Positions 1,753 to 31,911 of a stretch of 64,000 bases of DNA are shown here, one piece after another. Origin of the DNA: an uncultured Gemmatimonadales bacterium (lineage in GTDB: Bacteria; Gemmatimonadota; Gemmatimonadetes; Gemmatimonadales; GWC2-71-9). The notes beneath the pieces are model-generated. The model was given only the letters and a program-made list of their open reading frames with translations, had not been told where the DNA came from and searched no databases. Within the stretch, counting starts at the first letter, position 1. Each line of letters starts with the position of its first letter. The stretch covers positions 1 to 64,000 of the forward strand of contig CAWCVB010000003.1 of assembly GCA_963798915.1 (NCBI GenBank), in the 5' to 3' direction. Made by a program: the position numbers and the translations under genes.

Positions 1753-2663
1753 ATGGGCACTATCCGCGTTGCGGACTTCGAAGACTCCTTTGTAATCCAC
1801 TTCGGCGGCGACTTCGCCCGCATCAACGCCTACACGCTCGCCTCCACCCTGATCGGCATCGCTGATGCGGCAAGAGCGGCCAATACGCTCGTTGACCCGG
1901 CCACGAGATTGAAGTCGTCGTCGAGGCGCTCGGTGACGGCAGCTTTCGGACGAAGATCCGCGCCGTCTACCGCGCGGCGGACAACCTCTTCTCGCGCGAC
2001 AGCCTTCGCAACATCGCACTTGGCATCATTGCGACGTTCATCTATGAGCACACCCTCGCTCCGGACGCGCGCATTACGGTGCAAGTCGATTCAACCGAAG
2101 TTGTAATTCAACACGGCGACGACAGGATCATCGTCCCCCGCGCCGTCCATGAGGCGGCTCAGCAAGCCGAACGCGATCCGCAGTTCAGGAAGGGAATCGG
2201 CCAGGTACTTCGCGCGGTTGAGCAGGACGTCGTGATTACCACCTTTCAGCATCTGCAAAGATGACCGGGAATCGCGCCCACCCATCGAGATTCCGCGCGA
2301 ACGGTTCGCCGCCATTCCTAATAGCTTCCCGGACGACGACTCTGGCGACCGAGAGCTGGTCAAGCTCACCGAGGTCGAGATCCTCCGTGCGATCCTCGAA
2401 CGCTCCCGGCGCAAATGGGAGTTCGTTTGGAACGGCATGAAGATCTCAGCGCCGGTCACCGACCACAGTTCTGGGACGACTTCTTCGCACATAAGATCGC
2501 CATCGCACCGGGAGACGCGCTGCTGGTGAGACTTCGAATTCGTCAGGTTCGGGCGCCGGACATCGGCGTGTTCATTAATGACTCGTACGAAGTGATTGAA
2601 GTGGTGAAGCATATCCAGCGTACACGCCAGGCCGACTTTCCATTCGATGACGATGCCGCCTGA
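1753..2663 (+). CDS. Hypothetical island protein of ~300 aa (frameshifted)
   Basis: ORF pieces 1753-, 2079- and -2663 join into one coherent protein, MGTIRVADFEDSFVIHFGG...RRKWEFVWNGMKISAPVTD..FWDDFFAHKIAIAPGDALLVRL...; GAGG RBS. Confidence 0.6.
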
Positions 2664-5600
2664 AGCGAGGCTGATCGCCGCTGCCGTCCCGGTGAAGCTC
2701 AACGCGCTCGCTGAACGCTGGGCAACGGCGAAGGCGGCCGAGCGTGCGAACGCGCAGTGCTACCTGATCGAGCTCTGCCACGCGCTCGGCGTGGAACCGC
2801 CGCGGCCGGCGGGTACGGGCTATGAGTTCGAGTACCCGGTGAAGGTGGTGAGCCGCAAGGGTGAGGAGGCGACCAACTTCGTCGACCTCTACAAGGCGGG
2901 CCACTTCGCGCTGGAGGCGAAGGACCAGGAGGACGGGCGGGCGACCGACCTGCTGCTCCGAAAGGCGTTCGGCCAGGTGAGGAACTACGCGGCGCACGTC
3001 CCTGCACGAGCGCCCGCCGTACCTCCTCGTCCTGGACGTCGGACGACCCTGCTGGTGTGGGACCACTGGAGCGGCGACTACGGCGGGTTCAACCAGGGGC
3101 GGCGCATCGACCTGCGGACGCTCGCGGATCGGCCGCAGGACGTGGACCTGCTGCGCGCGATCTGGTCCGATCCGGCGAGCCTGGACCCGCGAGCGCGGGC
3201 CGAGGCCGTGACCAAGGAGATCGCGGCGAAGCTGGCCGCAGCTCGCCACCGAGCTGGAGGCGAAGGGGCATGCGCACGAGCGGGTCGCGCGCTTCCTGAT
3301 GCGGTGCGTCTTCACGATGTTCGCCGAGGACGTGGGGCTGCTGAAGGGCGAGCCCTTCCGCGGCATCCTGGACGAGGCGGCGCTCGAGAGCCCGGCGGAG
3401 TTCGTCCCGCTGGCGAAGGAGCTCTGGCGGCGATGGACCGGGGCGAGCGCTTCCTGCTGCAAGAAGCTGCTCCGCTTCAACGGCCACTTCTTCAAGGACG
3501 CCGAGGCGCTTCCGCTGGAAGCGCGAGGACCTGGCGCTCCTGCTCCAGGCGGCCGAGGCGGACTGGTCGGACGTGGAGCCGACGATCTTCGGCACCCTGC
3601 TGACGCGGGCGCTGGATCCGAAGAAGCGCCACCGGCTCGGCGCGGAGTACACGCCGCGGGAGTTCGTCGAGCGCGTGGTGCGGCCGACGGTCGGAGCAGC
3701 CGATCCGGGAGCGATGGACCGCGGTGCAGGCCGAGGTGCTCCAGCTGCGGGACCGCGGGCGACCCAGGACCTGAACGACGGCCGAGAGCGCGCTGCGGGA
3801 CTTCCACGACGTGGCTCCGCGGCCTGCGCTTCCTCGATCCCGGCCTGTGGCTCGGGCAACTTCCTCTACGTGACGATGCACCTGGTGAAGCGCATCGAGC
3901 TGGAGGTGATCCGCGCGATCGAGGAGCTCACCGGGGAAGCACGAGATCCGCCTTCGAGGAGGTCGGGCCCTGGCAGTTCCACGGGATCGAGGTGGACGCG
4001 TGGCCGCGCGAGATCGCGGAGCTCACGCTCTGGATCGGCTTCCACCAGTTCTGGAGGCGCACCACGACGTGCAGCCGCCCGAGCCGATCCTGCGCGACAC
4101 GGGCACGCTCGAGCTCCGCGACGCGGTGCTTCAGTGGGAGCGGATCGAGGAGGACCCGGAGAGAGCGCGCCCGACCCGACGCCGCGCATCAAGCACCCGG
4201 TGACCGGCGAGCTGGTGCCCGACCCGGAGGCGCGGCTGCCCGTACGAGGAGCACGTGCGGCGCGCGGCCGGCCAGCTGGCCGGAGGCGGACTTCATCATC
4301 GGCAACCCGCCGTACATGGGGGCGCGGCGACAGCGCGACGCGTTTGGGGACGGATACGTCGACGCGCTGCGCAGCGTCTACCCGGACGTTCCCGAGACGG
4401 CCGACTACGTGATGTACTGGTGGTGACGGCGGCGCGAGGAGGTCGCTGCGGGGCGGACGATCCGGGCCGGGCTGATCACGACGAACTCGATCACGCAGCG
4501 CTAAACCGCACGTCGATCGAGAAGGCGGCGCGAAGGGGGCTGACGGTGGTCTGGGCGGTCGCCGACCACCCGTGGGTGGATGAGGCCGGCGCGGCCGCCG
4601 TGCGTGTCGCGATGACGGTGATCGCGAAGGATCCGGCACGGGCGACGCTGGATGCGGGTCGACGAGCGAGGCCGGAGATCGTCGAGGAGATCGAGGTACC
4701 GCGTCTCAACGCGGACTTACAGCGCACGCCGACGTGGCGACGAGCGCTAAGGCGAGCCTGCTGCACGCGAACCGAGGGCTTGTCGTCGCGCGGCTTTACC
4801 TTGGTGGGCCGCGGGTTCGTCCTGACGGACGAGGCGCAAGCTGAGGTGCTGACGCAGCCGATCCTGAGCATGCGCATCATCATCCGGCCGTACCTGAACG
4901 GCCGAGACCTGAGCCCGGCCGCGCGGGGTCTACGTGATCGACTTCGGTGCGTAACGAAGGAGGAGGCTCGAGCGTACCCGGTGCTCTACGACATACGTCC
5001 GATCGCGTGTGAAGCCGCAACGCGACGCCAACAATGACCGGAGCACCCGCGAGAACTGGTGGCGTTTCGGCGAAACGGGAGGGCTCCGTCCGGCGCTCGA
5101 AGGGCTGCCGCGCTACATGGTCACAGTCGAAACGGCGAAGCATCGCTTCTTCACATTCCTGGACGCTGAGGTCGCGCCGGACAAGAAGATGATCTGCATC
5201 GCAACGGACGCGCCGCCCACCTAGGCATCCTCTCGTCGGCGATCCATGTCCAGTGGGCGCGCAAGGCGGGAGCGCGCCACGGGGTCGGGAACGATCCGAC
5301 GTACAACAAGAGCCTGTGCTTCGACTCCTTCCCGTTTCCTGATGTCGCGCCAGGGCAGCGAAGAACATCCGGGCGGTGGCCGAGCGGCTGGACCGGCATC
5401 GGAAGGAGGCCCTGGAGCGCGGGAAGGAAGTGACGATGAATGGGATGTACAACGTCGTCGAGAAGCTACGCATGGGGAGAACTCGATCAGCCCCAAGGAG
5501 CGGAAGGTTCACGACCTCGCCGCATGCGGAGTCCTGCGCGACTCCACGACGAGCTGGACGTGCTGGTGGCAGAGGCGTACGGCTGGACATGGCCGGAAGA

Positions 5601-7527: not shown

Positions 7528-7581
7528 AGGACTTAGGCTCCTGTCCCGCAAGGGGTCCGGGTTCGACTCCCGGCGTTCGCA
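7528..7581 (+). repeat. att-site direct repeat: 3' part of tRNA-Leu from the anticodon stem onward
   Basis: AGGACTTAGGCTCCTGTCCCGCAAGGGGTCCGGGTTCGACTCCCGGCGTTCGCA matches 887-941 except in the anticodon loop. Confidence 0.9.
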
Positions 7582-7596
7582 TGGTTGTGCTCGTGG

Positions 7597-7625
7597 TTGA
7601 CAAACTTTAAGCGAACTGGTAGTCT
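7597..7625 (+). promoter_or_regulatory. sigma70 promoter of the aminotransferase-panB-metXB operon
   Basis: TTGACA-N17-TAGTCT directly upstream of the riboswitch. Confidence 0.75.
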
Positions 7626-7642
7626 GTTGGCACAATCGACGA

Positions 7643-7695
7643 CTCGTGGTCATTTGCTGCCTATTGCCGCCACGTTAAACAAAGTGCTAAAACGC
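7643..7695 (+). promoter_or_regulatory. SAM-II (SAM-alpha) riboswitch
   Basis: CGTGGTCATTTG..TTGCCGCCACGTTAAACAAAGTGCTAAA: P1 CGTGG/CCACG, ATTTG, TTAAACAA and GCTAAA match the SAM-II pattern; lies upstream of met genes. Confidence 0.85.
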
Positions 7696-7700
7696 AACCA

Positions 7701-7731
7701 GCCCGGCGGCAATTGTCGTCCGGGCGTTTCT
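7701..7731 (+). terminator. Hairpin after the riboswitch (candidate expression platform)
   Basis: GCCCGG-CGGCAATTGTCG-T-CCGGGC followed by GTTTCT; short U tract. Confidence 0.45.
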
Positions 7732-7744
7732 GTGTCGGTATCCC

Positions 7745-8947
7745 ATGCCTCCTGCTTCAGGCACCCAGACCGCTCCGTCTCGAGTCCGGCTCGCCCGCCG
7801 CCATTCCGACCTGGTCGCTGAAGCCGCCTTTGCCATCGCCGCCCGAGTTGGCGCGCTGCGCTCGGCGGGCCGGGACATTGCCGATCTCTCGATTGGCGAG
7901 CCGGATCTTCCGACACCAGACGTTGTCCTGGACGCGGGCGCCCGTGCGCTCCGCGACGGCGGCATCCGCTACACCGCCCCGGCTGGTCTGGCCTCGCTCC
8001 GTCAAGCCATCGCCTCGGATTTCTCCCGCTGGTGCGCACCAACCCCGCCGGAGGATGTTTTCGTTACTCCCGGTGCCAAGTGTGCACTGCTGTACGCCAT
8101 TCTCGCGACGGTCAACGCGGGCGACCACATGCTTGTCCCCGACCCCGGCTTTCCGCCCTGCCGCTCCCAGGTGGCGCTCGCCGGAGCCCGCTGCATCGGC
8201 TATCCGCTCGGTGCGTCCGCGGATGACATCGCCACACGCGTCACCCCGCGCACCCGCGCCATCCTCATCAACTCGCCTGGCAACCCCTCGGGCGCTGCCC
8301 TCTCTCGCTCTGATCTCGAGTTCGTCGCCGAGCTCGCCGTCCGTCATGACCTGACGATCATCTCCGACGAGATCTACGCCCGCATCTGGTACGGCGACGG
8401 TGGCCGCGCGCCGAGCCTCGCCGGCCTGCCGGGACTTCGCGGCCGGACCATTGTCGTGGACGGGTTCTCGAAGGCCTGGCGCATGACCGGCTGGCGGCTG
8501 GGCTACGCCATCGTGCCGCCGCACTGCCGGGAGGTTTTCCATCGGCTCGCCGTGAGCGCGCACTCCTGTGTTCCCGGGTTCATCCAGTGCGCCGGCATCG
8601 CTGCGCTCGAGGCGGGAGACGAAGTGGTCCGGTCGTACGTCGGCGAGCTCCGCCGCCGGCGCGACGAGCTGGTCAACGGCTTGAACTCCATTCCGGGCGT
8701 GCACTGCATCGTGCCGCCTGGCGCCTTCTACGCCTTCCCCGACTGCTCGGCGCTGCTGGCGCGCCTCGGTTGCGACGACGTCGCCCTGGCCGACCATCTG
8801 CTCGAGCAGGCCGGAGTGGCCGCGGTTCCCGGCTCCGCCTTTGGCGCTCGAGGCGCCGAGCATCTGCGCCTGTCATTCGCCGCGTCGCCCTCCGCCCTGC
8901 GGGATGGTGTGTCGCGGATTCGCCACTTCCTCAACCCTCAACGCTGA
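7745..8947 (+). CDS. PLP-dependent class I/II aminotransferase (aspartate aminotransferase family)
   Basis: LSIGEPD, INSPGNPSG, ISDEIY, DGFSKAWRMTGWRLGY (PLP Lys), GAFYAFP, HLRLSFA. Confidence 0.92.
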   Translation: MPPASGTQTAPSRVRLARRHSDLVAEAAFAIAARVGALRSAGRDIADLSIGEPDLPTPDVVLDAGARALRDGGIRYTAPAGLASLRQAIASDFSRWCAPTPPEDVFVTPGAKCALLYAILATVNAGDHMLVPDPGFPPCRSQVALAGARCIGYPLGASADDIATRVTPRTRAILINSPGNPSGAALSRSDLEFVAELAVRHDLTIISDEIYARIWYGDGGRAPSLAGLPGLRGRTIVVDGFSKAWRMTGWRLGYAIVPPHCREVFHRLAVSAHSCVPGFIQCAGIAALEAGDEVVRSYVGELRRRRDELVNGLNSIPGVHCIVPPGAFYAFPDCSALLARLGCDDVALADHLLEQAGVAAVPGSAFGARGAEHLRLSFAASPSALRDGVSRIRHFLNPQR

Positions 8948-8952
8948 CTGCC

Positions 8953-9825
8953 ATGGCATCCCGCAAGATCACTACCGCGACCCTCAACGGGCTCCGTACC
9001 CGGGGCGAACGTGCTGTCTTCGTCACGGCCTACGACTACCCCACCGCAATCTTTGCCGAACGCGCCGGCGTCGACATGCTGCTGGTGGGCGACAGCGCGG
9101 CCATGACCATGCTGGGCCATGCGTCTACCGTCGCGGTGACCATGCAGGAAATGCTGGTCTTCACCCGCGCCGTCACGCGCGCCGCCAGACGCGCCTTCGT
9201 GGTGGGAGACCTTCCCTTCCTCTCCTACCAGGTGTCCGATGCGGAGGCGGTGCGCAACGCGGGCGCCTTCATCGCCGCCGGCTGCGATGCGGTCAAGTGC
9301 GAGGGTGGCCGGCGCATCACGCCGCGGGTTCGTGCCATGACCGACGCCGGCATCGCCGTCATGGGCCACCTGGGCCTCACGCCGCAGAGCCTTGGCCAAC
9401 TTGGCGGATACAAGGTGCAGGGCCGAACCCTGGCGGCGGCGGACGTGGTCCTGCAGGACGCCCTCGCGCTGCAGGAGGCCGGAGTCTTTGCACTGCTGCT
9501 CGAAGCGCTGCCCGCCGAGGCCGCCGCGTATGTGCGTGACCAGCTCGACATCCCGGTCTACGGCATCGGCGCCGGCCCCGGATTGGACGGCCAGCTCGTC
9601 ATCGTGCACGATATTCTCGGCAGCTTCGTCGGAGACATTCGTCCCAGTTTCATCCGACGCTACGCCGATCTGGATGTAACCATCACGGCGGCGCTGGAGG
9701 CCTTCGCCGCCGATGTACGCAGCGGGAGCTTTCCCGGTCCCGACCAGTGCTATTCGATCGCCCCGGAGGCCGCTGCCGAAATCCAGGCCGCACGCAACGG
9801 GAGAAATCTCACCAGTGTCTCGTAA
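8953..9825 (+). CDS. panB: Ketopantoate hydroxymethyltransferase family protein (PanB-like)
   Basis: TAYDY, LVGDS, DLPFLSY, VKCEGG, GHLGLTPQS..GGYKVQGR, GIGAG..DGQ. Confidence 0.9.
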   Translation: MASRKITTATLNGLRTRGERAVFVTAYDYPTAIFAERAGVDMLLVGDSAAMTMLGHASTVAVTMQEMLVFTRAVTRAARRAFVVGDLPFLSYQVSDAEAVRNAGAFIAAGCDAVKCEGGRRITPRVRAMTDAGIAVMGHLGLTPQSLGQLGGYKVQGRTLAAADVVLQDALALQEAGVFALLLEALPAEAAAYVRDQLDIPVYGIGAGPGLDGQLVIVHDILGSFVGDIRPSFIRRYADLDVTITAALEAFAADVRSGSFPGPDQCYSIAPEAAAEIQAARNGRNLTSVS

Positions 9826-11893
9826 TCCTTTGCCGAGCGTGCCGGCGCATTCACTCATCGGCTGTGACGGGGGCGCCGTCGTCGCCGTACTGGGCGGCAT
9901 CTCTGCCAATCATGAAGTGAGCCCCGGCTGGTTTGAACGCCAAGTGGGACCGGGGCGGGCGGTGGACACCGGAACGTACCGGGTGCTCGGTCTGGACTGG
10001 GAGGTGATGTCCGGCAGGCCCACACGGACCCACGATCAGGCGGCTCGGCTCGCCCAGGTCCTCGACCAGCTTGGCATCGCCGCACTGGACGCTATCATCG
10101 GCGCCTCGTACGGTGGCATGGTGGCGCTGGCGTTCGCCGAGGAGTATCCCGGTCGGGTCGGGCGCCTTCTGGTGCTGAGCGCCGCGCACGCTGCGCATCC
10201 GATGGCGACCGCTCACCGCGTCATTCAGCGCCGCATCCTCGATCTTGGTGGCCGCGGGGCCCGGCGACAGGAAGCACTGGCGCTGGCCCGGGCGCTTGCG
10301 ATAACTACCTATCGGACAGCCGAGGAATTTTCCGCCCGATTCACCGTTGAACCGACCAGCGCCCCGAGCGGCGCGCGCTTTCCGGTGGAGGACTATCTCG
10401 AGCACTGCGGCGATCGGTTCGCGTGCAGCTGGACCGCCGAGCGGTACCGCGCCCTGTCGGAGTCACTGGATCTTCACCGGGTGGATCCGGCGCGAATCCG
10501 GACGCCCACGTTTCTGCTGGCCGTCGAGGGCGACACCATCGCCCCACCCGCACAAATGGGGGCACTGCAGCGCGCGCTGGCCGGTCCCTCGACGCTGACG
10601 ATCATTCCCTCGCGCTACGGGCATGATGCCTTTCTCAAGGAGGAGGCAGCAGTCTCCCGGTTTGTCCAGGAGGCGCTCAACCTCCCTGTGGCCGCGCGGA
10701 GCCCGGCGCAGTCAAGAACGATCTCGCGTGCCGAGGATCCGTGCCGGCCCGTCAATCCCGGGCCGGCGACCAGCGCGGTGCGAGCCGGCATCGGCAGTGA
10801 CCGCCACCATCGGGCGGTGGTGCCACCGATCCACCTCTCGTCGACGTTTGCGTTTGATGGCCTGGGCCGGAAAGGCACCTACGACTACACCAGATCCGGC
10901 AATCCCACTCGGGATCATTTGGCCCATGCGCTCGCCGACCTGGAGCTTGGCACCGGCGCGGTGGTCACGAGTTCCGGGATGTCAGCGGTGGCGCTGGTGC
11001 TGCAGCTGCTTCGGCCAGGAGAGATCGTGCTTGCCGCGCATGACTGCTACGGCGGGACTCACCGCGCGCTGGTGGGACTGGCGGGGAAGCAGCATTTCGT
11101 GCTGCGCCGGGCCGACCTCACTGCCCCTGACGCCGTGGAGCAGGTCAGGTCCAGCGGCGCCAAGCTGGTCTGGATCGAGACGCCAAGCAATCCACTGCTG
11201 CGACTGACCGACATCCGGAAGGTGGCAGACGCCGCGCACGACGCCGGGGCGCTGGTCGTGGTGGACAACACGTTCCTGTCGCCGGCGCTGCAGCGTCCCC
11301 TTGAACTGGGCGCGGACATCGTGGTCCATTCCACCACCAAATACCTGAATGGGCACAGCGACGTGGTAGGAGGGGCGGTGATCGCCCGCGACGCAGCGAT
11401 CCACGAGCAACTGGCCTGGTGGGCCAACTGTCTGGGGCTCGCCGGGGCTCCGTTCGACAGCTTCCTGACGCTGCGCGGGTTGCGAACGCTGGATGCGAGG
11501 ATGCGAGTGCACCAGGAGAATGCCGCTCGGCTCGCCGTCGCGCTGGAGCGGCAGCCCGCCGTTTCGAGCGTGCACTATCCGGGCTTGCCGGCGCACCCGC
11601 AGCACCTCCTGGCCCGGACCCAGCAATCGGGTTTCGGGGCAATGATCAGCTTCGAGCTGGGGGGAGGGATCGCCGCGGTGGAGTGCTTCCTGCCGCGGCT
11701 CCAATATTTCTCGCTCGCGGAATCACTGGGCGGAGTGGAAAGTCTCATTGCCCATCCGGCCACCATGACGCACGCGTCCATGGATGCCGAGGCCCGAAAG
11801 GTGGCGGGTATTTCAGACTCGCTGCTGCGGATTTCAGTCGGCATCGAAGACGGGACGGACCTGGAGCGGGATCTGGTAGAGGCGTTGGAGTGA
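9815..11893 (+). CDS. metX-metB: Fused homoserine O-acyltransferase (MetX, Xanthomonas-like short type) and cystathionine gamma-synthase (MetB)
   Basis: GTG start after GGGAGA; GGISA, IGASYGGMVAL (nucleophile Ser), YGHDAFLKE; in-frame linker; then PPIHLSSTF, YDYTRSGNPTR, HSTTKYLNGHSDVVGG, AESLGGVESL. Confidence 0.88.
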   Translation: MSRNPLPSVPAHSLIGCDGGAVVAVLGGISANHEVSPGWFERQVGPGRAVDTGTYRVLGLDWEVMSGRPTRTHDQAARLAQVLDQLGIAALDAIIGASYGGMVALAFAEEYPGRVGRLLVLSAAHAAHPMATAHRVIQRRILDLGGRGARRQEALALARALAITTYRTAEEFSARFTVEPTSAPSGARFPVEDYLEHCGDRFACSWTAERYRALSESLDLHRVDPARIRTPTFLLAVEGDTIAPPAQMGALQRALAGPSTLTIIPSRYGHDAFLKEEAAVSRFVQEALNLPVAARSPAQSRTISRAEDPCRPVNPGPATSAVRAGIGSDRHHRAVVPPIHLSSTFAFDGLGRKGTYDYTRSGNPTRDHLAHALADLELGTGAVVTSSGMSAVALVLQLLRPGEIVLAAHDCYGGTHRALVGLAGKQHFVLRRADLTAPDAVEQVRSSGAKLVWIETPSNPLLRLTDIRKVADAAHDAGALVVVDNTFLSPALQRPLELGADIVVHSTTKYLNGHSDVVGGAVIARDAAIHEQLAWWANCLGLAGAPFDSFLTLRGLRTLDARMRVHQENAARLAVALERQPAVSSVHYPGLPAHPQHLLARTQQSGFGAMISFELGGGIAAVECFLPRLQYFSLAESLGGVESLIAHPATMTHASMDAEARKVAGISDSLLRISVGIEDGTDLERDLVEALE

Positions 11894-11931
11894 GGGAGTG
11901 GGGAGTGGGGATTGGGGGCCAGGGACCAGGG
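11894..11931 (+). repeat. GGGNNNN heptamer array (5.5 units)
   Basis: GGGAGTG GGGAGTG GGGATTG GGGGCCA GGGACCA GGG. Confidence 0.75.
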
Positions 11932-11988
11932 CCGCTCGTCATTCCCTCGGAAGCGGGAAGATGGAGGCACATTCGAAGTGCGACAGCC

Positions 11989-12064
<76 letters not shown>

Positions 12065-12065
<1 letters not shown>

Positions 12066-13255
12066 CAGGCGCCCAACGTAAAACTGAACCTCGCGCCCTC
12101 CCCCGGCCTGGCCTCGGCCCAGACCCGCCCGCCATGCCGGTGAATGACCCGCCGCACCGTGGCGAGGCCGATGCCCGTGCCCGGAAATTCGTCGGCGCGA
12201 TGCAACCGCTGGAACGGCCCGAAGAGCCGGTCTGCAAACGCCATGTCGAAACCCACACCGTTGTCCTGCACAAAGTAGGTCCGCTCACCATTGCGCTGCT
12301 GGAGGCCGAACTCGATCACGGCATCGGGCCGCCTGGCGGTGAATTTCCAGGCGTTCTGCAGCAGGTTGTCCAGCGCGATCCGGAGCAGGCGCCCGTCCCC
12401 GCTTACGATGATACCGGGCCGGATTTTGGTGACGACGTTGCGGCTCGGATCGGCATGGCGCATGTGCTGGAAGGTCAGCCGGGCCAGTTCGCTCAGGTCC
12501 ACCTCATGTTCCCGCAGCTCGGCGCTGGTGACGCGAGCCAGATGAATGACATCGTCAATCAACTGTCCCATGTGCGTCACGCTGGTGCGGATGTTGCCAA
12601 GAAATCGGGTGCCAGCCGGGGACGTGACCTCGCCACTCTCCTCCAGCGCCCGCGCAAACCCGTCAATGCGCCGCAGCGGGGCCCGGAGATCATGGGACAC
12701 CGCGTAGCTGAAGCTCTCCAGCTCGCGGTTCTTGTGCTCCAGGTCCCGGATGAGGGCCTTCTGCGTCACCGTGAGCGTAAGGGCTGCTTCCTCGCTGGCG
12801 CGCAACCGTTCGGCCTGGCGGGTAAGCTCGGCGTTCCGGCGGGCCAGCTCCACGAACACCGCCACCTTGGACCGGACAAATTCCGGCACCACCGGCTTGA
12901 TCAGGTAATCGACGGCGCCGACAGCGTAGCCGCGCACCGCCATCTGGGCATCCCGGTCGGCTGCGGTGAGGAAGATGATCGGCGTATCACGTGAACGCTC
13001 GCGCTGCCGGATCAGCTCGGCGGTTTCGAATCCGTCCATGTCCGGCATCTTCACGTCCAGCAGGATGACCGCGACATCCGCCAGCAGCAGCTGCTTGAGC
13101 GCCTCGCGACCGGATGTGGCAGTGACGATCTCCCGGCTGATGCCCTCGAGCATCGCCTTGAGCGCCACCAGGTTGGCGGGCTGGTCATCGACCAGCAGGA
13201 TCCGGACCCCCGGCTGGCCCTCGACCGCCTCGGGCTCCACTAGCGGTGCAGCCAT
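12065..13255 (-). CDS. Receiver-histidine kinase (REC-HisKA-HATPase)
   Basis: [51 protein letters not shown]. Confidence 0.92.
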
Positions 13256-16200
13256 ACCCTGAGCAGCGACAAGAGCTGGTCGGTATCCACCGGCTTGGCG
13301 ATATAGTCCACGGCGCCGGCCTCGATGCATTTCTCGCGGTCACCCTTCATCGCCTTGGCCGTCACGGCAATCACAGGCAACTTCCGGAATCTTGGCTGTT
13401 CCCGGATGGCCCGGGTGGTTTCGTATCCATCCATTTCCGGCATCATCACATCCATCAGGACGATATCAATGCCTGGCACCTCCTGGAGCCGGGCAAGCCC
13501 TTCCCGTCCGCTTTCGGCATGGACGACATTCATGCCGCTGCGCTCGAGCAGCGTCGTCAGGGCAAAGATGTTCCTGACGTCGTCATCCACAATCAGCACG
13601 GTGCGACCGAGCAGCGCCGGATCCTGCTGGCGCACCCGGTCGAGCATCTGTTGCCCCGACTCGGGAAGCTGCTCGGTGACCCGGTGAAGGTAGAGCGAAG
13701 TATCGTCGAGCAGCCGCTCCGGTGAACGCGCGTCCTTGATCACCACGGACTCCGCCAGGCGCCCAAGCTCCAGCTCTTCCGTTCGCGAGAGCGACTTTCC
13801 GGTGTAGACCACGGTCGGCAGCTTGCGGAGGCCCACTTCACTCTTGACCCGCTTGACCAGCTGAAAGCCGGTCATGTCCGGCAGGCCCAGATCCAGCACC
13901 ATGCAGTCGAACCGGCGGGCCTGAAGCTGGTCGAGTGCCTCGGCGCCACTGCCGACGGCGGTGGTCTCGACGTCCTCACCCGCGAGCAGCGTCATGATGC
14001 TGTTCCGCTGGGCCAGGTCGTCCTCGACAATGAGCAGCCGCTTCACCGGCCGGTCCACAAAGTCCGTAAGCGCGCGGAGTGACTCGGCAATACTGTCCCG
14101 GCTGGCGGGCTTGGTGAGGAAGTCGATGGCGCCAAGGCGCAGACCCCGCTGCCAGTTTTCCTCGACCGAGATGACGTGGACCGGAATGTGGCGGGTCGCC
14201 GGGTCGTGCTTGAGACGGTCGAGGATGGTCCAGCCGTCGGCATCCGGCAGACGAAGATCGAGGGTCACGGCGGTGGGAAGGAATTCGCGCGCCAGGGCGA
14301 GCGCCTGGTCCGCGCGCTGGGCCACGATTCCCTTGAAGCCGTGCTCCCGGGCAAGGTCCAGCAGGATCTGCGCGAACGCCGGGTCATCTTCCGCGATCAG
14401 CAGCACCCGCTCACCGGCCGCAATCGAGCCGCGATCGTCGCCGATGGTGCGCTCCACCGTTGGCAGGATGGTGAGCCGGGAGCCCAGCGGCGCCTTGGGA
14501 GATTCGATCGTCGCGACGCGGACGGCCTCCTCGGCTTCGTCGGGGCTCTCGAGCGGAAACGCGGCAGGAAGATAGAGGGTGAAGGTGCTGCCCTCGCCGG
14601 GCTGGCTCTCCAGGCAGATCTCGCCGCCGAGGAGTCGGGCAATCTGGCGGCTGATGGAAAGGCCGAGGCCGGTCCCACCGTACTTGCGACTGGTGGTGCC
14701 GTCGCCCTGCTGGAATGCCTCGAAGATGACGGCGTGCTTGTCGTGCGAGATGCCGATGCCGGTGTCGGTGACGCTGAACGCGATGACCGCCTCGGCCGAG
14801 TCGAGATGCACCTGGCCCGGGCTCCAGCCATTCGTGGCTACCCGCGCATCCAGTGACACCCGGCCCCGTTCGGTAAACTTGAATGCGTTGGACAGGAGGT
14901 TCTTGAGCACCTGCTGCAGCCGCTTGGCATCGGTCTGCACCACCGCGGGCAGGTTCTGGCCCAGCCGCACGTCGAAATCGAGGTGCTTGAGGTCGGCCAT
15001 CTGGCGGAAGGTGCCTTCCACGAACCGCCGCAGGTCGGCAAAGGGAATATTGCCGACGTCCACGGCCATCGTCCCGGACTCGATCTTGGAGAGGTCCAGG
15101 ATATCATTGATCAGGTCGAGGAGGTCGGAGCCCGACGAGTGAATCGTCTGGGCATAGCCGACTTGCTTGCCGGTCAGATTGGCCTCGGCATTCTCCGACA
15201 GGATCTGGGAGAGGATCAGCAGGCTGTTGAGCGGGGTCCGGAGTTCGTGCGACATGTTCGCCAGGAACTCGGACTTGTACTTGGACGTGAGGGCGAGCTG
15301 TTCGGCCTTCTCTTCCAGCGCCACCTTGGCCTGTTCCACCTCGCGGTTCTTCTGCTCAACCTCGGTCTTCTGCATCGAAAGCAGCCGGGCCTTGTCCTCC
15401 AGTTCGAGGTTGGTCTGCTGCAGCTCGTCCTGCTGCTTCTTGAGCAGCTCCTCGGACTGCTGGAGCGAGCGGGTCTGCTGCTCCAGCCGCTGGTTGGTCT
15501 CGGTGAGCGCCTCACGCTGCGACTGCAGGCTCTCGGTCAGCGCCTGGGACTGCTTCAGCAGTTCCTCGGTGCGCATGTTGGCGATGATCGTATTCAACAC
15601 GATGCCGATGCTCTCGGCCAGCTGCTCCAGGAAGTTGAGCCGGATCTCGTCGACCGGCTCGAACGTGGCCAGTTCCAGCACCGCCTTGACGTTGCCTTCG
15701 AAGAGCACTGGAATGACCACGATGTTCCGCGGCGCGGCCGCGCCCAGGCCCGAATTGATGCGGATGTACTCGCCAGGCACCTCGTTCAGCATCAGGACGC
15801 GCCGGTCCACGGCGCACTGGCCTACCAGTCCCTCGCCCAGCCGGAAGGAGCGGGGACTGTCCTGGCGTCCCTCGTTGGCGTAACTGGCCAGCAGTTCCAG
15901 CCGTACCTCGCTGCCGGTGCCATCCACCAGATAGAACACCCCATGATGGGCCGCCACCAGCGGGGCCAGGTCAGAGAGAATCAATTCCGAGACCGCAGTG
16001 AGGTCGCGCTGTCCCTGGAGCATCCGGCTGAACTTGGCGAGGTTGGTCTTGAGCCAGTCCTGCTCGGTGTTCTTGCGCGTGGTGTCGCGCAGGTTGCGGA
16101 TCATCTCGTTGATATTGTCCTTCAGCTGCGCCACCTCGCCCTGCGCCTCCACCGTGATGGACCGGGTCAGGTCGCCCTTGGTGACCGCGGTGGCCACTTC

Positions 16201-21324: not shown

Positions 21325-22776
21325 TCAAGGCGACTCCGGGACCGCGGCACCGTGACAGGCGCTGCACATCTGCGGATTCCGCTTTCTCAACCGCTTGGCA
21401 TCGAACCCCGGCCCGTGCGGACTGAAGTGCCGCCCGCCCAGCGCCGAATGGCAGGTCAGGCAGTCCCGCTCGGCATGGCAGGAGACACAGCTCTCGAGGT
21501 TCTGCCGTGCGGCGGGACCGTGTCCGAGAAGAAAGTTCTGCTTCGCGTCATGAAATCCCCCGCGCAACTGTCCCCGAGCAACGAGCCCAGCCTGCTGGTG
21601 GCATTCGGTACAGAATTGCCGGGTGTTGTGGCACTCGGCGCACGACACGTCGCGCCCATATGCCGAGGCAGGATGGCGGGCGAGGAACCCGGTTGGGTGG
21701 TAGCCGGGCGCCGAGGCGGCGCTGGGCCGATGGCAGTCGAGACAGTCCGCTCGCGCATGACAGACGGCGCAGCTCCTGGGAACAGCGGCGGCAGGCAGCG
21801 CATGCCGATCGGAAAAATCGTCCCCGTGGGACGCGGGTCGGCGCCGCACAACCAGGGCACCGGCACCCCGCCCCGGCCCGCCTGCATGGATCGCGACCGT
21901 CGCCTCCGGCTTTCCGACGTGACAGGTGAGGCAGCTTTCGCGGGTATGACAGACGGCACAGCGCTGCGGTGCGCGCTGTTCCAGCCGCCCATGGCGCTGC
22001 ACAAAATCTCCAGCGCCGTGACTGGCGGGTGCCTCGAGCTTCACTTCGATCGCGAGCGAGCGGGCATCGGGCGCGAGTGCCTGGATTGGCGGAACTTCCG
22101 GGGCATTCACGTGGCACCTGATGCAGAAGTCGCGGGCGTGGCAGGTCGCGCAGCTCGGCGAGACCCCGATTGGCGGCCGACCAGCCACCGGGGTCGGCTG
22201 GGCGAGCTTTCCATGGTTCTGGATGAATGACGTATCCTGGTGGGACGGGGGTTCGGGAAACGCTGCAATGCGTCCTCGCGAGAGTGTCGTTGCCTGGGCC
22301 AGCGTCAGGTGGCAGGTAGCGCAGGCGGTGTCGGGCGCTGTGAGGTGCTCAGCCTGAATACCATGGCAGTTCAGACAGCGTTGCCGCTCGGTACGCTGAA
22401 CCCTCATCCAGGGTGCATCCGGGCCAAGGTGACATGACGCGCACATGAGCGAATCGAGAGGGAAGCGTGCGCCGGCTCTGGCGGCATGCACCAGATGCTT
22501 GAAGCGAAGATTGGATGGCCGCGATGCGTCGGGCGGGCTCCAATCGACCTTCTTCTCGATGGTGCCGTCGTGGCAATTCGCGCAGATGGCCGGCGAGGGC
22601 CAGATCGACCGGGTGGAATCCTGTGCACCGGCGTGGCACCCCTGGCACACGGGAAAGACCTCGCGGTGCTGCCAGTGATCGAAGTGATCCTTCGCAGCTC
22701 GCGCGGCGAGTTGCCCTCGCGACCCGATCACGGCCACGGCACCCGCCACGACGAGGAGGTAGTGTACTGGCCTCAT
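21325..22776 (-). CDS. Periplasmic hexadecaheme cytochrome c
   Basis: 16 CxxCH motifs counted; hydrophobic signal peptide; ATGA overlap with the upstream gene. Confidence 0.9.
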   Translation of the reverse strand: MRPVHYLLVVAGAVAVIGSRGQLAARAAKDHFDHWQHREVFPVCQGCHAGAQDSTRSIWPSPAICANCHDGTIEKKVDWSPPDASRPSNLRFKHLVHAARAGARFPLDSLMCASCHLGPDAPWMRVQRTERQRCLNCHGIQAEHLTAPDTACATCHLTLAQATTLSRGRIAAFPEPPSHQDTSFIQNHGKLAQPTPVAGRPPIGVSPSCATCHARDFCIRCHVNAPEVPPIQALAPDARSLAIEVKLEAPASHGAGDFVQRHGRLEQRAPQRCAVCHTRESCLTCHVGKPEATVAIHAGGPGRGAGALVVRRRPASHGDDFSDRHALPAAAVPRSCAVCHARADCLDCHRPSAASAPGYHPTGFLARHPASAYGRDVSCAECHNTRQFCTECHQQAGLVARGQLRGGFHDAKQNFLLGHGPAARQNLESCVSCHAERDCLTCHSALGGRHFSPHGPGFDAKRLRKRNPQMCSACHGAAVPESP

Positions 22777-24278
22777 CGGCCCGCGCGCCTCCGGGCGCCC
22801 CGGATTGCTGGTGGGAGACGAAGACGGTCGGCGTCCGTGCCAAATATCCACGAGATCCGGCCCTGCAGCCGGAACTGATTCCAGTCGAAGGCCCCTGCGT
22901 CGGCCCGACGACGGGCCTCGAAGTACTGCGCCGCCGACAGGCTCATCTGCAATCGATCGGACGCGCCGAAGCTGGCATCGAGGCCAATCGCGTCCACCTG
23001 CGCTTCATCGAAGCGGAGCTCGAGCGGCCGGGCCAGCGTGGAGCCGAAGGCTGAGAGCGAGAAGCGCGAAACTGGACGCCAGGTCACCTGGGCATCCCAG
23101 GTGCGCGACGACGCCCCCGCTCCGAACTCGGCGCGGTAGCCAGCGTCCAGCGTGAGGGTCGGGCTCGCCGATACAGTCGCAGAAATTGAGGATCGCCATC
23201 CCCGGTCTTCGACCGTCACGAGTCCGGTCTCGGCGAATGACTCGGTGTACCAGTAGCGCTCCCCGCTGGCGCGCAAGCGGACGCGCCGGGCCGGCGCGAA
23301 CGAGATGGACCCGTCGATGGCGGTATAGGGAACGGCGGCGAAGGCGCCCCAGATGGTCCACAGGTCGAAATGCGGCCGGTATCGCCTCACGCCCGCATCA
23401 GCAGTGAAGCGGCGATCCACGAACCGGAGAAACACTTCGGAACTGCCCCACCATCCCTGGGCCAGGTCGTACTCCGTCGCACCCGTGAGGCTCACATGCC
23501 CCATGGGACGAAGCCCGGCACTGAGGGCGGCGCGCTCGGAGCTGAAGAAGTGGGTTGATCGGTCCACCTCGCGCAGGTACTCGGCTCGGAGGTCGGCCCA
23601 GTGACTGCGCCAGTCCAGCGCTGCGCCTGCCGTGAGACTCCGTTGCGGCACCTGAAACTCGTCCAGCGGGTTGAGCGACGGGCTGTTGACGGGGATGTCG
23701 GTGCTTCGCGCCATGCCCCAGCCGCCATAGCCGGTCAGCTCGAGTCCGAGCCGCAGCACGCGCACCGTTACGGCGGCTCCATCAATTCCCGTCCAACCGA
23801 ACCGCCCGGTGATGTGCTGTCGTCCCAGGCGTGCCCTGAGGCCGGGCGTCTCGTACTCCGCGTACCCCTCGAGCAACTGAACCGCCGGCTGGGTACCAGG
23901 CCAGATGTTGTCCTTCCCGAGATCGACGCCCCACCGCGCATTCCCCCGAAGCCTGAGCCCGCTGACGCCCACGCCCCACGCTGTCAGGTCAACGCTGCTC
24001 ACCAGGGGATAGCTGGCCTGTCGCGGGCCGGGCCGAAAGTAGGTGCAGTAGGTACTGGAGCCCGGGCAGACGACCGCAAATCCGTCCGCCGACTCGGGAC
24101 CCCCGCTTGGGCCGACAACCGCGGCGCTGGAGAGGATGCTATCCTCTGCCACGCCGCGGAATGCCACCGCCTGAAAGCGGGTGTCCACGCGCAGCTGGTA
24201 ATCCTGGGCAGAGAGGACGCTCGAGACCAGGCAGGTCAGGGCAATGCCCAGGGCAGCCGGCTGGCGCGGGCGACTTAC
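22773..24278 (-). CDS. Outer-membrane beta-barrel (porin of a putative porin-cytochrome complex)
   Basis: Signal peptide ending VLSA-QD, alternating aromatic beta-strands, RLGRQ motif, late RISWIF strand; lies between multiheme genes; start codon atypical. Confidence 0.78.
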   Translation of the reverse strand, partial: VSRPRQPAALGIALTCLVSSVLSAQDYQLRVDTRFQAVAFRGVAEDSILSSAAVVGPSGGPESADGFAVVCPGSSTYCTYFRPGPRQASYPLVSSVDLTAWGVGVSGLRLRGNARWGVDLGKDNIWPGTQPAVQLLEGYAEYETPGLRARLGRQHITGRFGWTGIDGAAVTVRVLRLGLELTGYGGWGMARSTDIPVNSPSLNPLDEFQVPQRSLTAGAALDWRSHWADLRAEYLREVDRSTHFFSSERAALSAGLRPMGHVSLTGATEYDLAQGWWGSSEVFLRFVDRRFTADAGVRRYRPHFDLWTIWGAFAAVPYTAIDGSISFAPARRVRLRASGERYWYTESFAETGLVTVEDRGWRSSISATVSASPTLTLDAGYRAEFGAGASSRTWDAQVTWRPVSRFSLSAFGSTLARPLELRFDEAQVDAIGLDASFGASDRLQMSLSAAQYFEARRRADAGAFDWNQFRLQGRISWIFGTDADRLRLPPAIRGARRRAGR

Positions 24279-24985
24279 GATGCCGCCCTCCCTCGACTGA
24301 GCTGTTGCCGAAGTTCCGCTGGCGAGCGCTGGAAATGGCAGACACTGCACTCCTTTTCCGCATGATGGTCCTGCTCGGGCGAGTGGCAGGCCAGGCAGAA
24401 CGAACGGGTCGGAACCAGCCGCGCGATGGTGGCGGGAGTGTGGCACCGATCACAGGCCACGTGGGTCATCGCCGGGTGCTTCACTGCCGCCGTCTCAGGT
24501 CGATGGCATACGGCGCAATCCCGGGCCTGAGCGTGGTGCTGGTCGTGGCAGCCAATACAGGTCCGGGCCGAGTCCGCCGGAGCCATGGTGACGGGTGTGA
24601 CGTGGCAGCGAGTGCAGGCGAGACTGTCGTGCTTCGCGTGAGGAAACTGCACTGGTCGACGCTGCGGCTCGTGCCGGGGCACGGCCACGGTCACCTCCAC
24701 CGCCACTGCCGCCGCAAGCTGGTTGGCCTCGTGGCATGCTCTGCAATCCGCCTTGGCGGGACGCTGGTGATGGCAGATCTGGCAGCCACGAGGTGGCTCG
24801 AATGTCAGTGGCTGTGTCTCCGATCGAAGATCGTGACAGGTGAGACAGGCGAGGCGCCGGTGGCGTGCGTGCGGGAAAGAGTCGCTGACAGCGGCGTCGG
24901 ACGCCTGGTGGCGTGCCGCCAGAATACTGTGGCCGCCGTGGGGCGGCCACAGGTAGAGGACGGCAAGGAGGAGGCCGAGTTGCAC
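24275..24985 (-). CDS. Nonaheme cytochrome c (c3/c7-like repeats)
   Basis: 9 CxxCH motifs, two FPHA.H distal-His motifs, N-terminal signal, GGGGGAG RBS. Confidence 0.9.
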   Translation of the reverse strand: MQLGLLLAVLYLWPPHGGHSILAARHQASDAAVSDSFPHARHRRLACLTCHDLRSETQPLTFEPPRGCQICHHQRPAKADCRACHEANQLAAAVAVEVTVAVPRHEPQRRPVQFPHAKHDSLACTRCHVTPVTMAPADSARTCIGCHDQHHAQARDCAVCHRPETAAVKHPAMTHVACDRCHTPATIARLVPTRSFCLACHSPEQDHHAEKECSVCHFQRSPAELRQQLSRGRAAS

Positions 24986-25001
24986 CCTCGGCTCCCCCGA
25001 A

Positions 25002-26690
25002 TCAGCGTGTGGGCGGCTGGTAGAGTACGCCCGGCCGCGTGAGGGCCCGGTCCATCACGGCGCGGACACTCACGTTGGGGTTTGCGAGGCCGTACTCCGT
25101 CTTCACCGCGTCAATCGAGGCCGCCAGCATCGCCTCGTAGTAGAATGGGTTGTGCACCCCGTGCGAGCCCTCAAGGTGTCGCTGGCTCGAACCAGTTGCG
25201 TTCAGGTACGGAATCTCGCTGAACAAAATCGTGTTGTAGAACGCCTTCTCCGCCGTGCTCGAGATCGAGCTGTTGGTGAACTCCCCGGGATTGTTTGCCA
25301 GGACCTGCGCGAGATATCCCTGATCCGTCGGTGCGGGATCGAGGTATCCGTTGTTGTTGACGTCGGACCACAGCTGAGCCGCCAGCGTGCCGATGGCCGT
25401 GCGCTCCGAATTCAGGAGCTGCGCTGCCGTGCTGGCGTCGGCGTGGCAGCCACTTGCCGCGCAGGCGCTCCAGTTCCGGGCGCTGGCCGTGAAGGCGCAC
25501 GCGTCATCGTATGGATCGACCGGAATGCCGCTGGGTTGCACGCACGGAATCGGCTGGAACAAGTGGCCGACCGAGGTGAACGTCCCGCCAGGCAGGCTGG
25601 CATCGTTGACGGTATACCGGACGACATGGCAGCCGGCGCAGGTCTCCGGATTTCGGCTGGCGTTCCCGTGGGAGCTCGGCCCCTGGAAGGTGAGCCCGGG
25701 AGGTTCCCACCCTGCATCGCCGAACACGACCGGCCCCTGCGCGCCATGCGCACCCCGCTGCCCCTGCGGCAGGTTCGGGTCCGCGACGTTCAGCGACGTG
25801 AAGGGGGTAAATGCCAGGCTCGGTTTCGCACTGTTGTTGTGACAGTGGGCGCAGAGATTCTGGTTGATGTCGCTGGTGGTCACCGGCAGGCGCAGCTGGC
25901 CCTTGATGGGCTTGCCGTCCGGCCCCTGAACGGAGCCATGCGGATCGTGACAGACGGCGCAGGTCTGCGGGAACTCGTAGGTCAGTCCCGCATCGAGCTC
26001 CACGAAGTTGGTCCGCTGCACGTTCAAGTCGACGAGGACCTGCTTCCCGCTATGACACTGGGGTCCGCAGCTGGCGCCGCCGTGCGAGTTCACCACGCTG
26101 TCGCCGTGGCCCGACTGTCTCCACTGCTCCACGTACGGCGTGTGCCCCTCGTTGTTGTGACATGCACCACAGGTGGCCCCGGCCGGAGCATGCGTCACGC
26201 TGGTGTCGGTCGGATCGAAGACGTTGGCACGCGCCAGCGGCCACTTGGTCGGGTCGTCAGGCGTGACGACATGGTCGATCCCCGGGCCGTGGCAGCTTTC
26301 GCACTGCACATCCCGGTACACGCTATCGCTGGTCAGGTCCCAGCCAGCCTCCTTGCCCAGGAGACCGACCATGTTTCCGCGCGCCGTCACGTCATGGCAG
26401 CTGAAGCACTCCGGCGCCGCGTTGGGCACCTGCGCAATGAGATTCTCGAATGCCGAAGCATGGGCAGTCTTTGCCCAGTCGGCCTGGTGCCCGACATGGC
26501 AGTTCCCGCAGGTGGTCTGCTTGGTACTCACCGTGAAGAAGCCGAGAAAGCCGTTCGCGGGATCGGCCGGGGGATTGAAAGGCTCCCGGTCCCTGAACAC
26601 GGTGTTGGTGCATGCCGCGCCCACGAGCGCCGTAACGACCGTGAGATACAGCACCATGCGAGGTGAGACGACTCGGGACCGGGGCGACAT
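25002..26690 (-). CDS. Multiheme cytochrome c lipoprotein (7 CxxCH + CX3CH + CX4CH)
   Basis: Lipobox-like VGAA-C; c554-like W..TAHA..F and VQCESCHGPG; C-terminal GSHGVHNPFY. Confidence 0.88.
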   Translation of the reverse strand: MSPRSRVVSPRMVLYLTVVTALVGAACTNTVFRDREPFNPPADPANGFLGFFTVSTKQTTCGNCHVGHQADWAKTAHASAFENLIAQVPNAAPECFSCHDVTARGNMVGLLGKEAGWDLTSDSVYRDVQCESCHGPGIDHVVTPDDPTKWPLARANVFDPTDTSVTHAPAGATCGACHNNEGHTPYVEQWRQSGHGDSVVNSHGGASCGPQCHSGKQVLVDLNVQRTNFVELDAGLTYEFPQTCAVCHDPHGSVQGPDGKPIKGQLRLPVTTSDINQNLCAHCHNNSAKPSLAFTPFTSLNVADPNLPQGQRGAHGAQGPVVFGDAGWEPPGLTFQGPSSHGNASRNPETCAGCHVVRYTVNDASLPGGTFTSVGHLFQPIPCVQPSGIPVDPYDDACAFTASARNWSACAASGCHADASTAAQLLNSERTAIGTLAAQLWSDVNNNGYLDPAPTDQGYLAQVLANNPGEFTNSSISSTAEKAFYNTILFSEIPYLNATGSSQRHLEGSHGVHNPFYYEAMLAASIDAVKTEYGLANPNVSVRAVMDRALTRPGVLYQPPTR

Positions 26691-31904: not shown

Positions 31905-31911
31905 GGCAACT

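Follow-up and report, generated by a model that had tools for sequence, protein, structure and literature searches.

What is a gene of the ketopantoate hydroxymethyltransferase (KPHMT, PanB) family doing in a methionine operon that appears to be controlled by S-adenosylmethionine (SAM)? The question is raised by a 64,000-nt stretch of DNA (hereafter the window; G+C content 66.6%) from an uncultured Gemmatimonadales bacterium (contig CAWCVB010000003.1, positions 1 to 64,000), in which positions 7597–11893 of the forward (+) strand carry, in this order, a SAM-II-type aptamer, a hairpin with a T-rich tail, a gene for a class-I/II pyridoxal-phosphate (PLP) aminotransferase (AT), a PanB-family gene and a fused MetX-MetB gene (metXB). 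Textbooks give homoserine, the substrate of MetX, a single origin, the reduction of aspartate semialdehyde. An earlier note on this DNA had proposed that the PanB-like enzyme and AT together make homoserine from pyruvate, through 4-hydroxy-2-oxobutanoate (HOB). Gene linkage supports the view that the PanB-like protein, often with AT, works in a SAM-controlled methionine pathway, at or before homoserine; the conversion of pyruvate to HOB and on to homoserine in an operon switched off by SAM is the most economical reading of the sequences, and one to which we give an even chance.

All three genes lie on the + strand. AT is encoded at 7745–8947 (400 aa; PF00155, 187.5 bits) and is followed, after the 5 nt that the earlier note had counted and the coordinates bear out, by the PanB-like gene at 8953–9825 (290 aa), which belongs to what is called here the Y200 subfamily. 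The third gene, metXB, had been described as a metX-metB pair overlapping panB; both functions are present, but 9713–11893 is a single uninterrupted open reading frame (ORF) and hence one fused gene. Pfam scans of 45 window ORFs and tblastn searches with E. coli PanC, PanD, ThrA, ThrB and ThrC find no panC, panD, panE, hom, asd or aspartokinase gene in the 64-kb window; the earlier note had stated this of panC, panD and panE, and of hom and aspartokinase for the operon. Its picture of the operon holds overall, with three corrections: the riboswitch scores below threshold, the promoter is weak and metX-metB is one gene.

The arrangement recurs in related genomes. Species-representative genomes were scanned with the PanB-like protein and the best 80 of 578 confirmed matches were used; the scan requires a shared exact 8-residue word, gives one locus per genome and is silent on a second panB copy. 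Thirty-eight of the 80 loci are from Gemmatimonadota (each from a different assembly, 63–76% identity) and 42 from other phyla (45–57%). Relatives of the window protein at 71–86% identity, the closest of them at 77–86%, are, where named, Gemmatimonadales and Gemmatimonadaceae records. A covariance model of 33 homologous riboswitch copies covers the window and 32 of the 38 Gemmatimonadota loci, always ahead of AT-PanB or of PanB itself, and matches none of the 42 loci of other phyla; four of the six negative Gemmatimonadota loci (L005, L006, L030 and L035) end at a contig edge less than 1 kb upstream. AT adjoins PanB in 22 of the 38 loci, 21 times upstream and once downstream, and by tblastn in none of the 42 loci of other phyla, where the one match (L053) lies 2.3 kb downstream. 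Where no AT adjoins, the riboswitch can stand directly before PanB, at a distance of 98–155 nt from the first base of the aptamer UUGC motif to the first aligned PanB codon (L009, L010, L014, L018, L019, L023, L026, L027, L025 and L041).

The pantothenate genes show the opposite distribution. Neither in the window nor in any of the 38 Gemmatimonadota loci does panC adjoin the PanB-like gene, and the same is true of panD and panE; panC adjoins panB in 24 of the 42 loci of other phyla. The proposal that this panB is under SAM control and outside a pantothenate operon is thus upheld by the riboswitch link in 32 of 38 loci and by the count of zero for panC, and the synteny that the earlier note had asked for is conserved in part, as riboswitch-(AT)-PanB in those 32 loci and as AT-PanB-MetX, which recurs in L022.

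The identity of the remaining neighbours indicates what the product could be used for. Neighbour families, called from Pfam and NCBIfam scans of ORFs and from tblastn with representatives (on the strand of PanB and no more than 6.5 kb away, across the 38 loci), form three sets. The first contains a threonine-synthase-like PALP enzyme (26 of 38 loci), homoserine kinase (ThrB; 18 of 38, that of L011 scoring 190.3 on TIGR00191 against a cut-off of 168.25), a 91-aa ThiS/MoaD-like protein and a ThiF-rhodanese E1 close to MoeZ/MoeB; its gene context suggests that the PALP enzyme is MetM-like. The second, riboswitch-MetY-MetX-PanB, is found in L032 and L034 (MetY: TIGR01326, 623.3, cut-off 495.1). 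The third is AT-PanB-MetX in L022 and AT-PanB-MetXB in the window, and contigs of 6140, 89416 and 3499 nt occur in both the PanB and the MetX-MetB match lists, which points to the same arrangement in close relatives of the window. In 31 of 39 sources (the 38 loci and the window), PanB has beside it at least one gene whose product activates or consumes homoserine; the contig of L028 breaks off after a ThiS-like match, and L010, L024, L030 and L036 have too little downstream sequence for a partner to be called. In L008 a single 421-aa ORF (10870–12132) encodes homoserine kinase fused to the ThiS-like sulfur carrier.

The constant feature of these partners is that they start from homoserine, which MetX acylates and ThrB phosphorylates. 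Because both begin there, and because pyruvate plus one carbon gives the homoserine skeleton, homoserine is the product favoured here.

Gene fusions join PanB to the same partners. A search for longer relatives returned 60 proteins; P0121 and P0122 head the list, with 71 and 70% identity. P0121, of 666 aa, joins MetX to PanB (NF001209, 390.6, cut-off 331; PanB at residues 376–639) and has a sister of the same length, P0181; the two are encoded on contigs of 4.22 and 5.47 Mb, so an isolated assembly error does not account for the fusion. P0122 carries PanB fused to the C-terminal half of AT, but is a single sequence that begins inside AT and may reflect a frameshift. PanB-PanC fusions make up 28 of the 60 (40–57% identity to the query), and four proteins (P0123–P0126, 55–58%) are methyltransferase-PanB fusions. 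In P0175 (621 aa, on a 5.4-kb contig) a MetY-like segment runs straight into a Y200-type PanB that lacks its first third; the N-terminal part of P0175 consists of unrelated pieces, and it is either a real fusion or a chimeric assembly.

The PanB-like protein shares with PanB (EC 2.1.2.11; structures 1M3U and 1OY0) its fold family, its catalytic residues and the passing of the family cut-offs (PF02548, 328.6 bits against 28.7; TIGR00222, 281.1 against 207.55; NF001452, 323.1 against 272); it is 40% identical to E. coli PanB, and its best solved relatives are PanBs. It differs in its SAM riboswitch, in having no pan neighbours, in forming a separate clade and in the residues of its pocket. Subfamily members score about 315–337 bits on the Pfam model, against 372–412 for five canonical PanBs in the same scan. 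In a maximum likelihood tree of 82 PanBs (quick search, LG+C20; the root, on the long E. coli branch, is uncertain), all 39 rows from Gemmatimonadota group together (SH-aLRT 98), nested within a 45-row clade (SH-aLRT 100, stem 0.65), the six other members of which are two Gammaproteobacteria metagenome-assembled genomes (MAGs), two Bryobacteraceae, a Treponema MAG and a record labelled Bathyarchaeia. None of the 25 panC-adjacent rows, that of E. coli among them, falls inside this clade, so the PanB phylogeny suggested in the earlier note separates the window protein from the panC-linked PanBs.

The clade has its own residues around the ligand. Fifty subfamily sequences (39 Gemmatimonadota, six sister proteins, three MetX or AT fusions and two methyltransferase fusions) were compared with 62 canonical ones (25 panC-adjacent, 25 PanB-PanC or PanB-PanE fusions and 12 others), leaving out four PanC fusions that cover only 46–60% of the query. 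In E. coli numbering, position 200 is Y in all 50 subfamily members and I in all 62 canonical proteins; position 179 is L in 49 and I in one, against V in all 62; position 212 is L in all 50, against V or I; position 214 is I in all 50, against V in 61 and I in one; and position 113 is C in 49 and I in one, against L, I, M or V. The window protein has C116, L182, Y203, L215, V216 and I217, which puts L, Y, L and I in place of the canonical pocket (V179, I200, V/I212, V214). The catalytic and metal-binding residues (E. coli D45, S46, D84, K112, E114, H136 and E181; D47, S48, D86, K115, E117, H139 and E184 in the window protein) are kept in both sets and in 39 of 39 Gemmatimonadota proteins; the list follows the available text of PMC13488298, which prints D46 for the first aspartate, D45 and S46 being taken from the alignment to E. 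coli PanB.

The same text names four motifs that surround the ligand pocket in structure 1M3U, two of them being KPHMT residues 197–205 and 209–217 (PMC13488298). According to the available parts of PMC7610986 and PMC7611260, the E. coli KPHMT mutations I202A, I212A and V214G "expanded the active site" and let the enzyme take a broader set of 2-oxo acids. The natural changes in the subfamily, to equal or bulkier residues, go the opposite way and would therefore fit a substrate smaller than 2-oxoisovalerate. Tyrosine at position 200 occurs in 11 of the best 150 representatives (50% identity, from 1.84 billion proteins), most of which are canonical, so the subfamily is a minority branch. A GDSAAM motif together with loss of the HH motif was rejected as a signature, both being common to M. 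tuberculosis PanB and some PanB-PanC fusions, and an ESM Atlas search with the PanB-like protein returned generic PanB clusters only.

Sister proteins of the clade are found in other surroundings. In L038 (5130–11577) and L040 (7247–12965) the PanB-like gene stands with a GT2 glycosyltransferase, a DegT-type aminotransferase, an acetolactate-synthase-like thiamine-pyrophosphate (TPP) enzyme, a methyltransferase and an epimerase; the methyltransferase-PanB fusions P0123–P0126 belong to this branch, in which the Y200 subfamily is put to another use, of glycan or metabolite type. Pfam at an E-value of 0.01 gave no match for the unknown ORFs beside the sister genes, and no riboswitch lies near those of L058, L065, L079 and L039. 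In L079 (Bryobacteraceae, 10001–14882) the PanB-like protein has a long C-terminal extension, its Pfam match ending at profile position 235 of 259, and its gene lies 1.6 kb upstream of a gene with a homocysteine S-methyltransferase domain and one for a RACo-type corrinoid activator, possibly another methionine link in a second phylum.

On the reading favoured here, transcription would read through the leader when SAM is low. The PanB-like enzyme, retaining the Mg-binding and base residues of KPHMT, would use 5,10-methylene-tetrahydrofolate to hydroxymethylate pyruvate, not 2-oxoisovalerate, at C3, giving HOB; AT would turn HOB into L-homoserine; and the MetX domain would acylate homoserine for the fused MetB domain to condense the product with cysteine. 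The operon would in that case carry its own supply of the four-carbon skeleton in addition to the steps that consume homoserine; this reading may equally well prove right or wrong. The methionine regulon of E. coli contains metL. More tentatively, and with confidence a little short of even, we propose a natural route in which a PanB-derived pyruvate hydroxymethyltransferase and a dedicated aminotransferase, gated by a SAM-II aptamer and terminator, supply homoserine in Gemmatimonadota and perhaps in other holders of the Y200 subfamily; with the same reserve, such a route would avoid the ATP and two NADPH spent on the aspartate route. It would probably run beside the aspartate pathway and not in its place, as an extra route dedicated to methionine. 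The same enzyme may also supply ketopantoate, a far smaller flux that leaky expression from the riboswitch could cover.

Engineered strains lend the route some plausibility. According to the available text of a preprint (10.1101/2025.02.17.638773), a strain deleted for hom was partly rescued by over-expression of P. putida PanB when sarcosine served as the source of one-carbon units, and various endogenous aminotransferases of E. coli convert HOB to homoserine (review PMC8879981). The AT of the operon has aspartate aminotransferases (6f35, 5wmh and 1bkg) as its best solved relatives and reaches no NCBIfam equivalog cut-off (best equivalog NF004769, 267.7 against 617; subfamily model NF004770, 299.9 against 422). 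It is nearest to the subgroup I-beta aspartate/prephenate aminotransferases and is proposed to be the enzyme that aminates HOB to homoserine. The lysine that binds the distal carboxylate in subgroup I-beta was considered as a test of its substrate: it is kept, by eye, in a GAK motif, but a glutamate-dependent homoserine aminotransferase would need this lysine too, and the argument was dropped.

The final gene, metXB, is given as 9815–11893 (+), with an uncertain start (9815, 9839 or 9713). The overlap with panB claimed in the earlier note amounts to 11 nt if translation begins at GTG 9815 and to 113 nt with ATG 9713, but gives way to a 13-nt gap with GTG 9839, the start that matches a 684-aa database protein for this window (P0182). 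The MetX part (ORF residues 47–323) scores 295.9 on NF006449 (cut-off 296), with profile positions 1–51 unmatched, and visual inspection of the translation and of its alignment to L022 shows the GxSxG, Asp and His motifs. The MetB part (residues 352–725) passes the equivalog cut-off of TIGR02080 (543.7 against 504.55) and scores 566.1 on the Xanthomonas-type model NF006450, under its cut-off of 730. On these profiles the fused gene is assigned as a homoserine O-acyltransferase (MetX, of the Xanthomonas succinyl type) joined to a cystathionine gamma-synthase (MetB/MetBX), and MetX and MetB domains are both present in 77 of its 120 best database relatives, many of them from Gemmatimonadales and Longimicrobiales. 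A second PLP enzyme of cysteine and methionine metabolism is encoded in the window at about 58400–59550 (+; NF005871 cystathionine gamma-synthase, 520.8, cut-off 513) and may act with or beside the fused MetB.

The proposed control by SAM would act through the leader. A candidate sigma-70-type promoter lies at 7597–7625 (+), with TTGACA at 7597–7602, a spacer of 17 nt and TAGTCT at 7620–7625; read from the sequence, it would be the promoter listed in the earlier note, but the −10 hexamer matches at only three of six positions and a consensus scan made no call. The SAM-II (SAM_alpha, RF00521) aptamer follows at 7630–7703 (+; Rfam core 7645–7692). It scores 34.2 bits (E 8.9e-6 in a 1-kb search), slightly under the gathering score of 36, at which Rfam finds no match anywhere in the 64-kb window. 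The earlier identification of a SAM-II riboswitch is nevertheless supported: since the homologous element passes the gathering score in 13 of 15 related Gemmatimonadota loci (38.4–59.1 bits), the window copy appears to be a family member just short of the threshold and not a chance match. Its 85.6 bits on the covariance model of the 33 copies hold by construction. The likeness to SAM-II lies in the family-model match and the P1 stem; the core is nearly invariant over the 33 copies, with a two-sided P1 change in L020 alone and hence little covariation support, and P1 and the pseudoknot (3′ tail GCUAAA) were judged from the alignment.

Downstream of the aptamer, a GC-rich hairpin (7702–7723, +) with a T-rich tail (GTTTCTGTGT) forms, by folding, an element at 7702–7736. 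A hairpin followed by at least six T in 10 nt stands after the aptamer in 27 of the 33 homologous leaders, including that of the window, in our own scan without a shuffle control; a stricter terminator scan made no call on the 7702–7736 element. It is likely, as predicted from these leaders, that the hairpin and T-tail are a terminator-type expression platform. SAM-II is usually described as masking the ribosome-binding site, and the hairpin and T-run behind the aptamer of the window operon suggest control by transcription termination instead.

Upstream, the leader is bordered by a 48-nt copy of the 3′ part of a tRNA gene (7535–7582, +), the right-hand member of a direct repeat (895–942 and 7535–7582, 47 of 48 positions identical, 6.64 kb apart) whose source is a tRNA gene at 859–941, to which ARAGORN gives an odd 4-base anticodon loop, "taag". 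The repeats bracket a likely integrated island of about 6.6 kb with an MmeI-N-terminal-like ORF (2647–3603), and the island ends 15 nt ahead of the putative operon promoter. Two related loci have a further SAM-II-like element, which diverges from the PanB leader on the other strand (L041, 9162–9234; L036, 159–231; both on the − strand); that of L041 precedes an ATP-grasp-like ORF and a luciferase-like monooxygenase, and these elements may mark further unrecognised members of a SAM regulon.

Several observations weigh against the formation of homoserine from pyruvate by these enzymes. Powers and Snell (1976) reportedly found that E. coli KPHMT does not use pyruvate, and we know of no member of the Y200 subfamily whose enzyme activity is known. 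The window protein passes the panB equivalog cut-off and by sequence is still a PanB, and six sister proteins with the same signature occur in other contexts, mainly glycan-type clusters. Within the Gemmatimonadota, no AT adjoins PanB in 16 of the 38 loci, no riboswitch is found within 6 and 10 kb upstream in L017 and L037 respectively, and no homoserine-consuming gene lies near PanB in L017, L025 or L041. Further objections come from published gene contents, in a study of 400 Gemmatimonadota genomes (PMC10581226; group means in its Table S5, a genome matrix in its Table S4). In the SEED matrix of Table S4, hom is listed in 95 of the 143 visible genome columns (hand count), so an extra homoserine route is not required, and the label "aspartate-independent" of the earlier note, taken to mean carriers without hom, is not supported in that form. 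In the group means of Table S5, soil genomes have 0.66 Hom, 0.64 Asd and 0.71 aspartokinase per genome and freshwater genomes 0.59, 0.75 and 0.73. PanB averages 1.02 per soil genome, where universal single-copy genes reach 0.86–0.90, and PanC 0.81, so most carriers seem to have one PanB plus PanC, which would make the PanB-like protein the source of ketopantoate. The study is noisy: the PanB row of its Table S4 is almost all zeros, contradicting its Table S5 (PMC10581226).

These data bear on the explanation that the protein is an ordinary KPHMT, in most carriers the only one, whose place in SAM-controlled methionine operons is a habit of the lineage, reflecting, for example, a coupling of methylene-tetrahydrofolate consumers. 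We consider this unlikely. It would account for the equivalog match, for the retention of every catalytic residue and for the roughly one PanB per genome with PanC in most soil Gemmatimonadota, and the main text of the same study, in its available part, says that most of its genomes encode pantothenate synthesis (PMC10581226). It leaves unexplained, however, why the gene keeps company with three homoserine-activating sets that are unrelated to one another, one of them making no use of CoA, why it is fused to MetX and AT when other PanBs are fused to PanC or PanE, and why its pocket residues are fixed differently. Its commonest neighbour is an aminotransferase, yet ketopantoate is reduced and not aminated. 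Freshwater genomes average only 0.12 PanC and 0.08 IlvC (ketol-acid reductoisomerase; 0.66 in soil) in Table S5 of PMC10581226, while L023, a Gemmatimonas phototrophica record, keeps an intact riboswitch-PanB-MetM-ThiS-MoeZ operon; together, the group means and this one record give a hint of PanB persisting where pantothenate synthesis does not.

Somewhat less probable still is that PanB and AT do serve methionine or sulfur metabolism but act on another 2-oxo acid or in another order, so that homoserine is not the direct product; HOB might be phosphorylated before amination, or 2-oxobutanoate or a sulfur-bearing oxo acid might be hydroxymethylated. Linkage implies a product that enters the pathway but does not identify it, and E. 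coli KPHMT takes many 2-oxo acids (Table 2 of PMC7611260, in its available part). L025, which contains PanB, an aldo-keto reductase, AT and a methyltransferase, has the reductase between PanB and AT, and sister proteins with the same pocket stand beside TPP enzymes and sugar aminotransferases. Against this, each partner set, whether through MetX or ThrB, begins at homoserine itself, the skeleton of which is exactly pyruvate plus one carbon. To our knowledge, no other methionine intermediate requires hydroxymethyl transfer to a 2-oxo acid. A local accident, in which insertion of the island or transfer of a Xanthomonas-like metX-metB brought unrelated genes together, is scarcely credible, since, although the tRNA-bounded island stops just short of the promoter and the top models for the MetX and MetB halves are of Xanthomonas type, it is contradicted by riboswitch-(AT)-PanB in loci of 32 different genomes, by AT-PanB-MetX in L022 and by the three contigs shared between the match lists, which suggest the same gene pair.

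The pyruvate-to-homoserine reading has relatives among known systems. In Xanthomonadales, metBX lies between metA and hom according to the available text of PMC13759103, in agreement with the comparison drawn in the earlier note. The window operon resembles this metA(X)-metBX-hom cluster in its MetX and MetB subtypes (best models NF006449 and NF006450) and in encoding a proposed homoserine supply alongside, and differs from it in the fusion of MetX to MetB and in having AT and the PanB-like gene in place of hom, the slot that they would fill. A MetM/MetO route from O-phosphohomoserine (Hasebe et al. 2024) is listed as experimentally supported in Streptomyces in the available Table 2 of PMC13759103. 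Most relatives of the window operon resemble it in having homoserine kinase, a threonine-synthase homologue, a ThiS-like carrier and a MoeZ-like E1, whereas the window uses MetX-MetB and the Gemmatimonadota sets are preceded by a SAM-II riboswitch and the PanB-like gene, with or without AT. The chemistry itself is that of the engineered homoserine cycle (HOB aldolase plus HOB aminotransferase), which passes through the same proposed intermediates, from pyruvate and a one-carbon unit to HOB and homoserine. That cycle uses free formaldehyde and promiscuous E. coli enzymes such as RhmA (He et al. 2020, cited from the review PMC8879981, where HOB is called a non-native metabolite); the gene pair here is conserved and predicted to be SAM-regulated, and as a dedicated pair would use methylene-tetrahydrofolate.

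The component families and the type of SAM-riboswitch methionine operon are thus known, and what is new is the conserved recruitment of a distinct PanB subfamily and an AT. Literature searches found engineered pathways or unrelated papers only, with no natural link of PanB to HOB, homoserine or a SAM riboswitch; a riboswitch survey makes no mention of PanB under a SAM riboswitch, and the available text of GapMind 2026 (PMC13759103), a catalogue of new amino-acid enzymes, mentions neither PanB nor Gemmatimonadota. If the proposed route is real, homoserine has a second natural origin, from pyruvate and a folate-bound one-carbon unit, which would be a new step in amino-acid biosynthesis. The reading of "panB" in genome-based predictions of auxotrophy would change for a whole soil and freshwater phylum, and engineers of HOB and homoserine chemistry, who now rely on promiscuous E. 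coli enzymes, would gain a naturally optimised enzyme pair. Even with other chemistry, phylum-wide control of a vitamin-pathway enzyme by a SAM riboswitch is unreported in the literature searched, and the annotation "3-methyl-2-oxobutanoate hydroxymethyltransferase" is probably incomplete for the subfamily.

Two further features of the window may be recorded. Around and after the metXB stop codon lie tandem arrays of GGAGTGG (4.3 copies, 11887–11917) and CAGCGCT (11.4 copies, 11989–12068), the latter occupying the gap ahead of a convergent hybrid histidine kinase gene. Further downstream, 21325–33219 encodes, on both strands, multihaem cytochromes, a molybdopterin oxidoreductase, a 4Fe-4S protein and an NrfD-like membrane subunit, which are unrelated to the operon.

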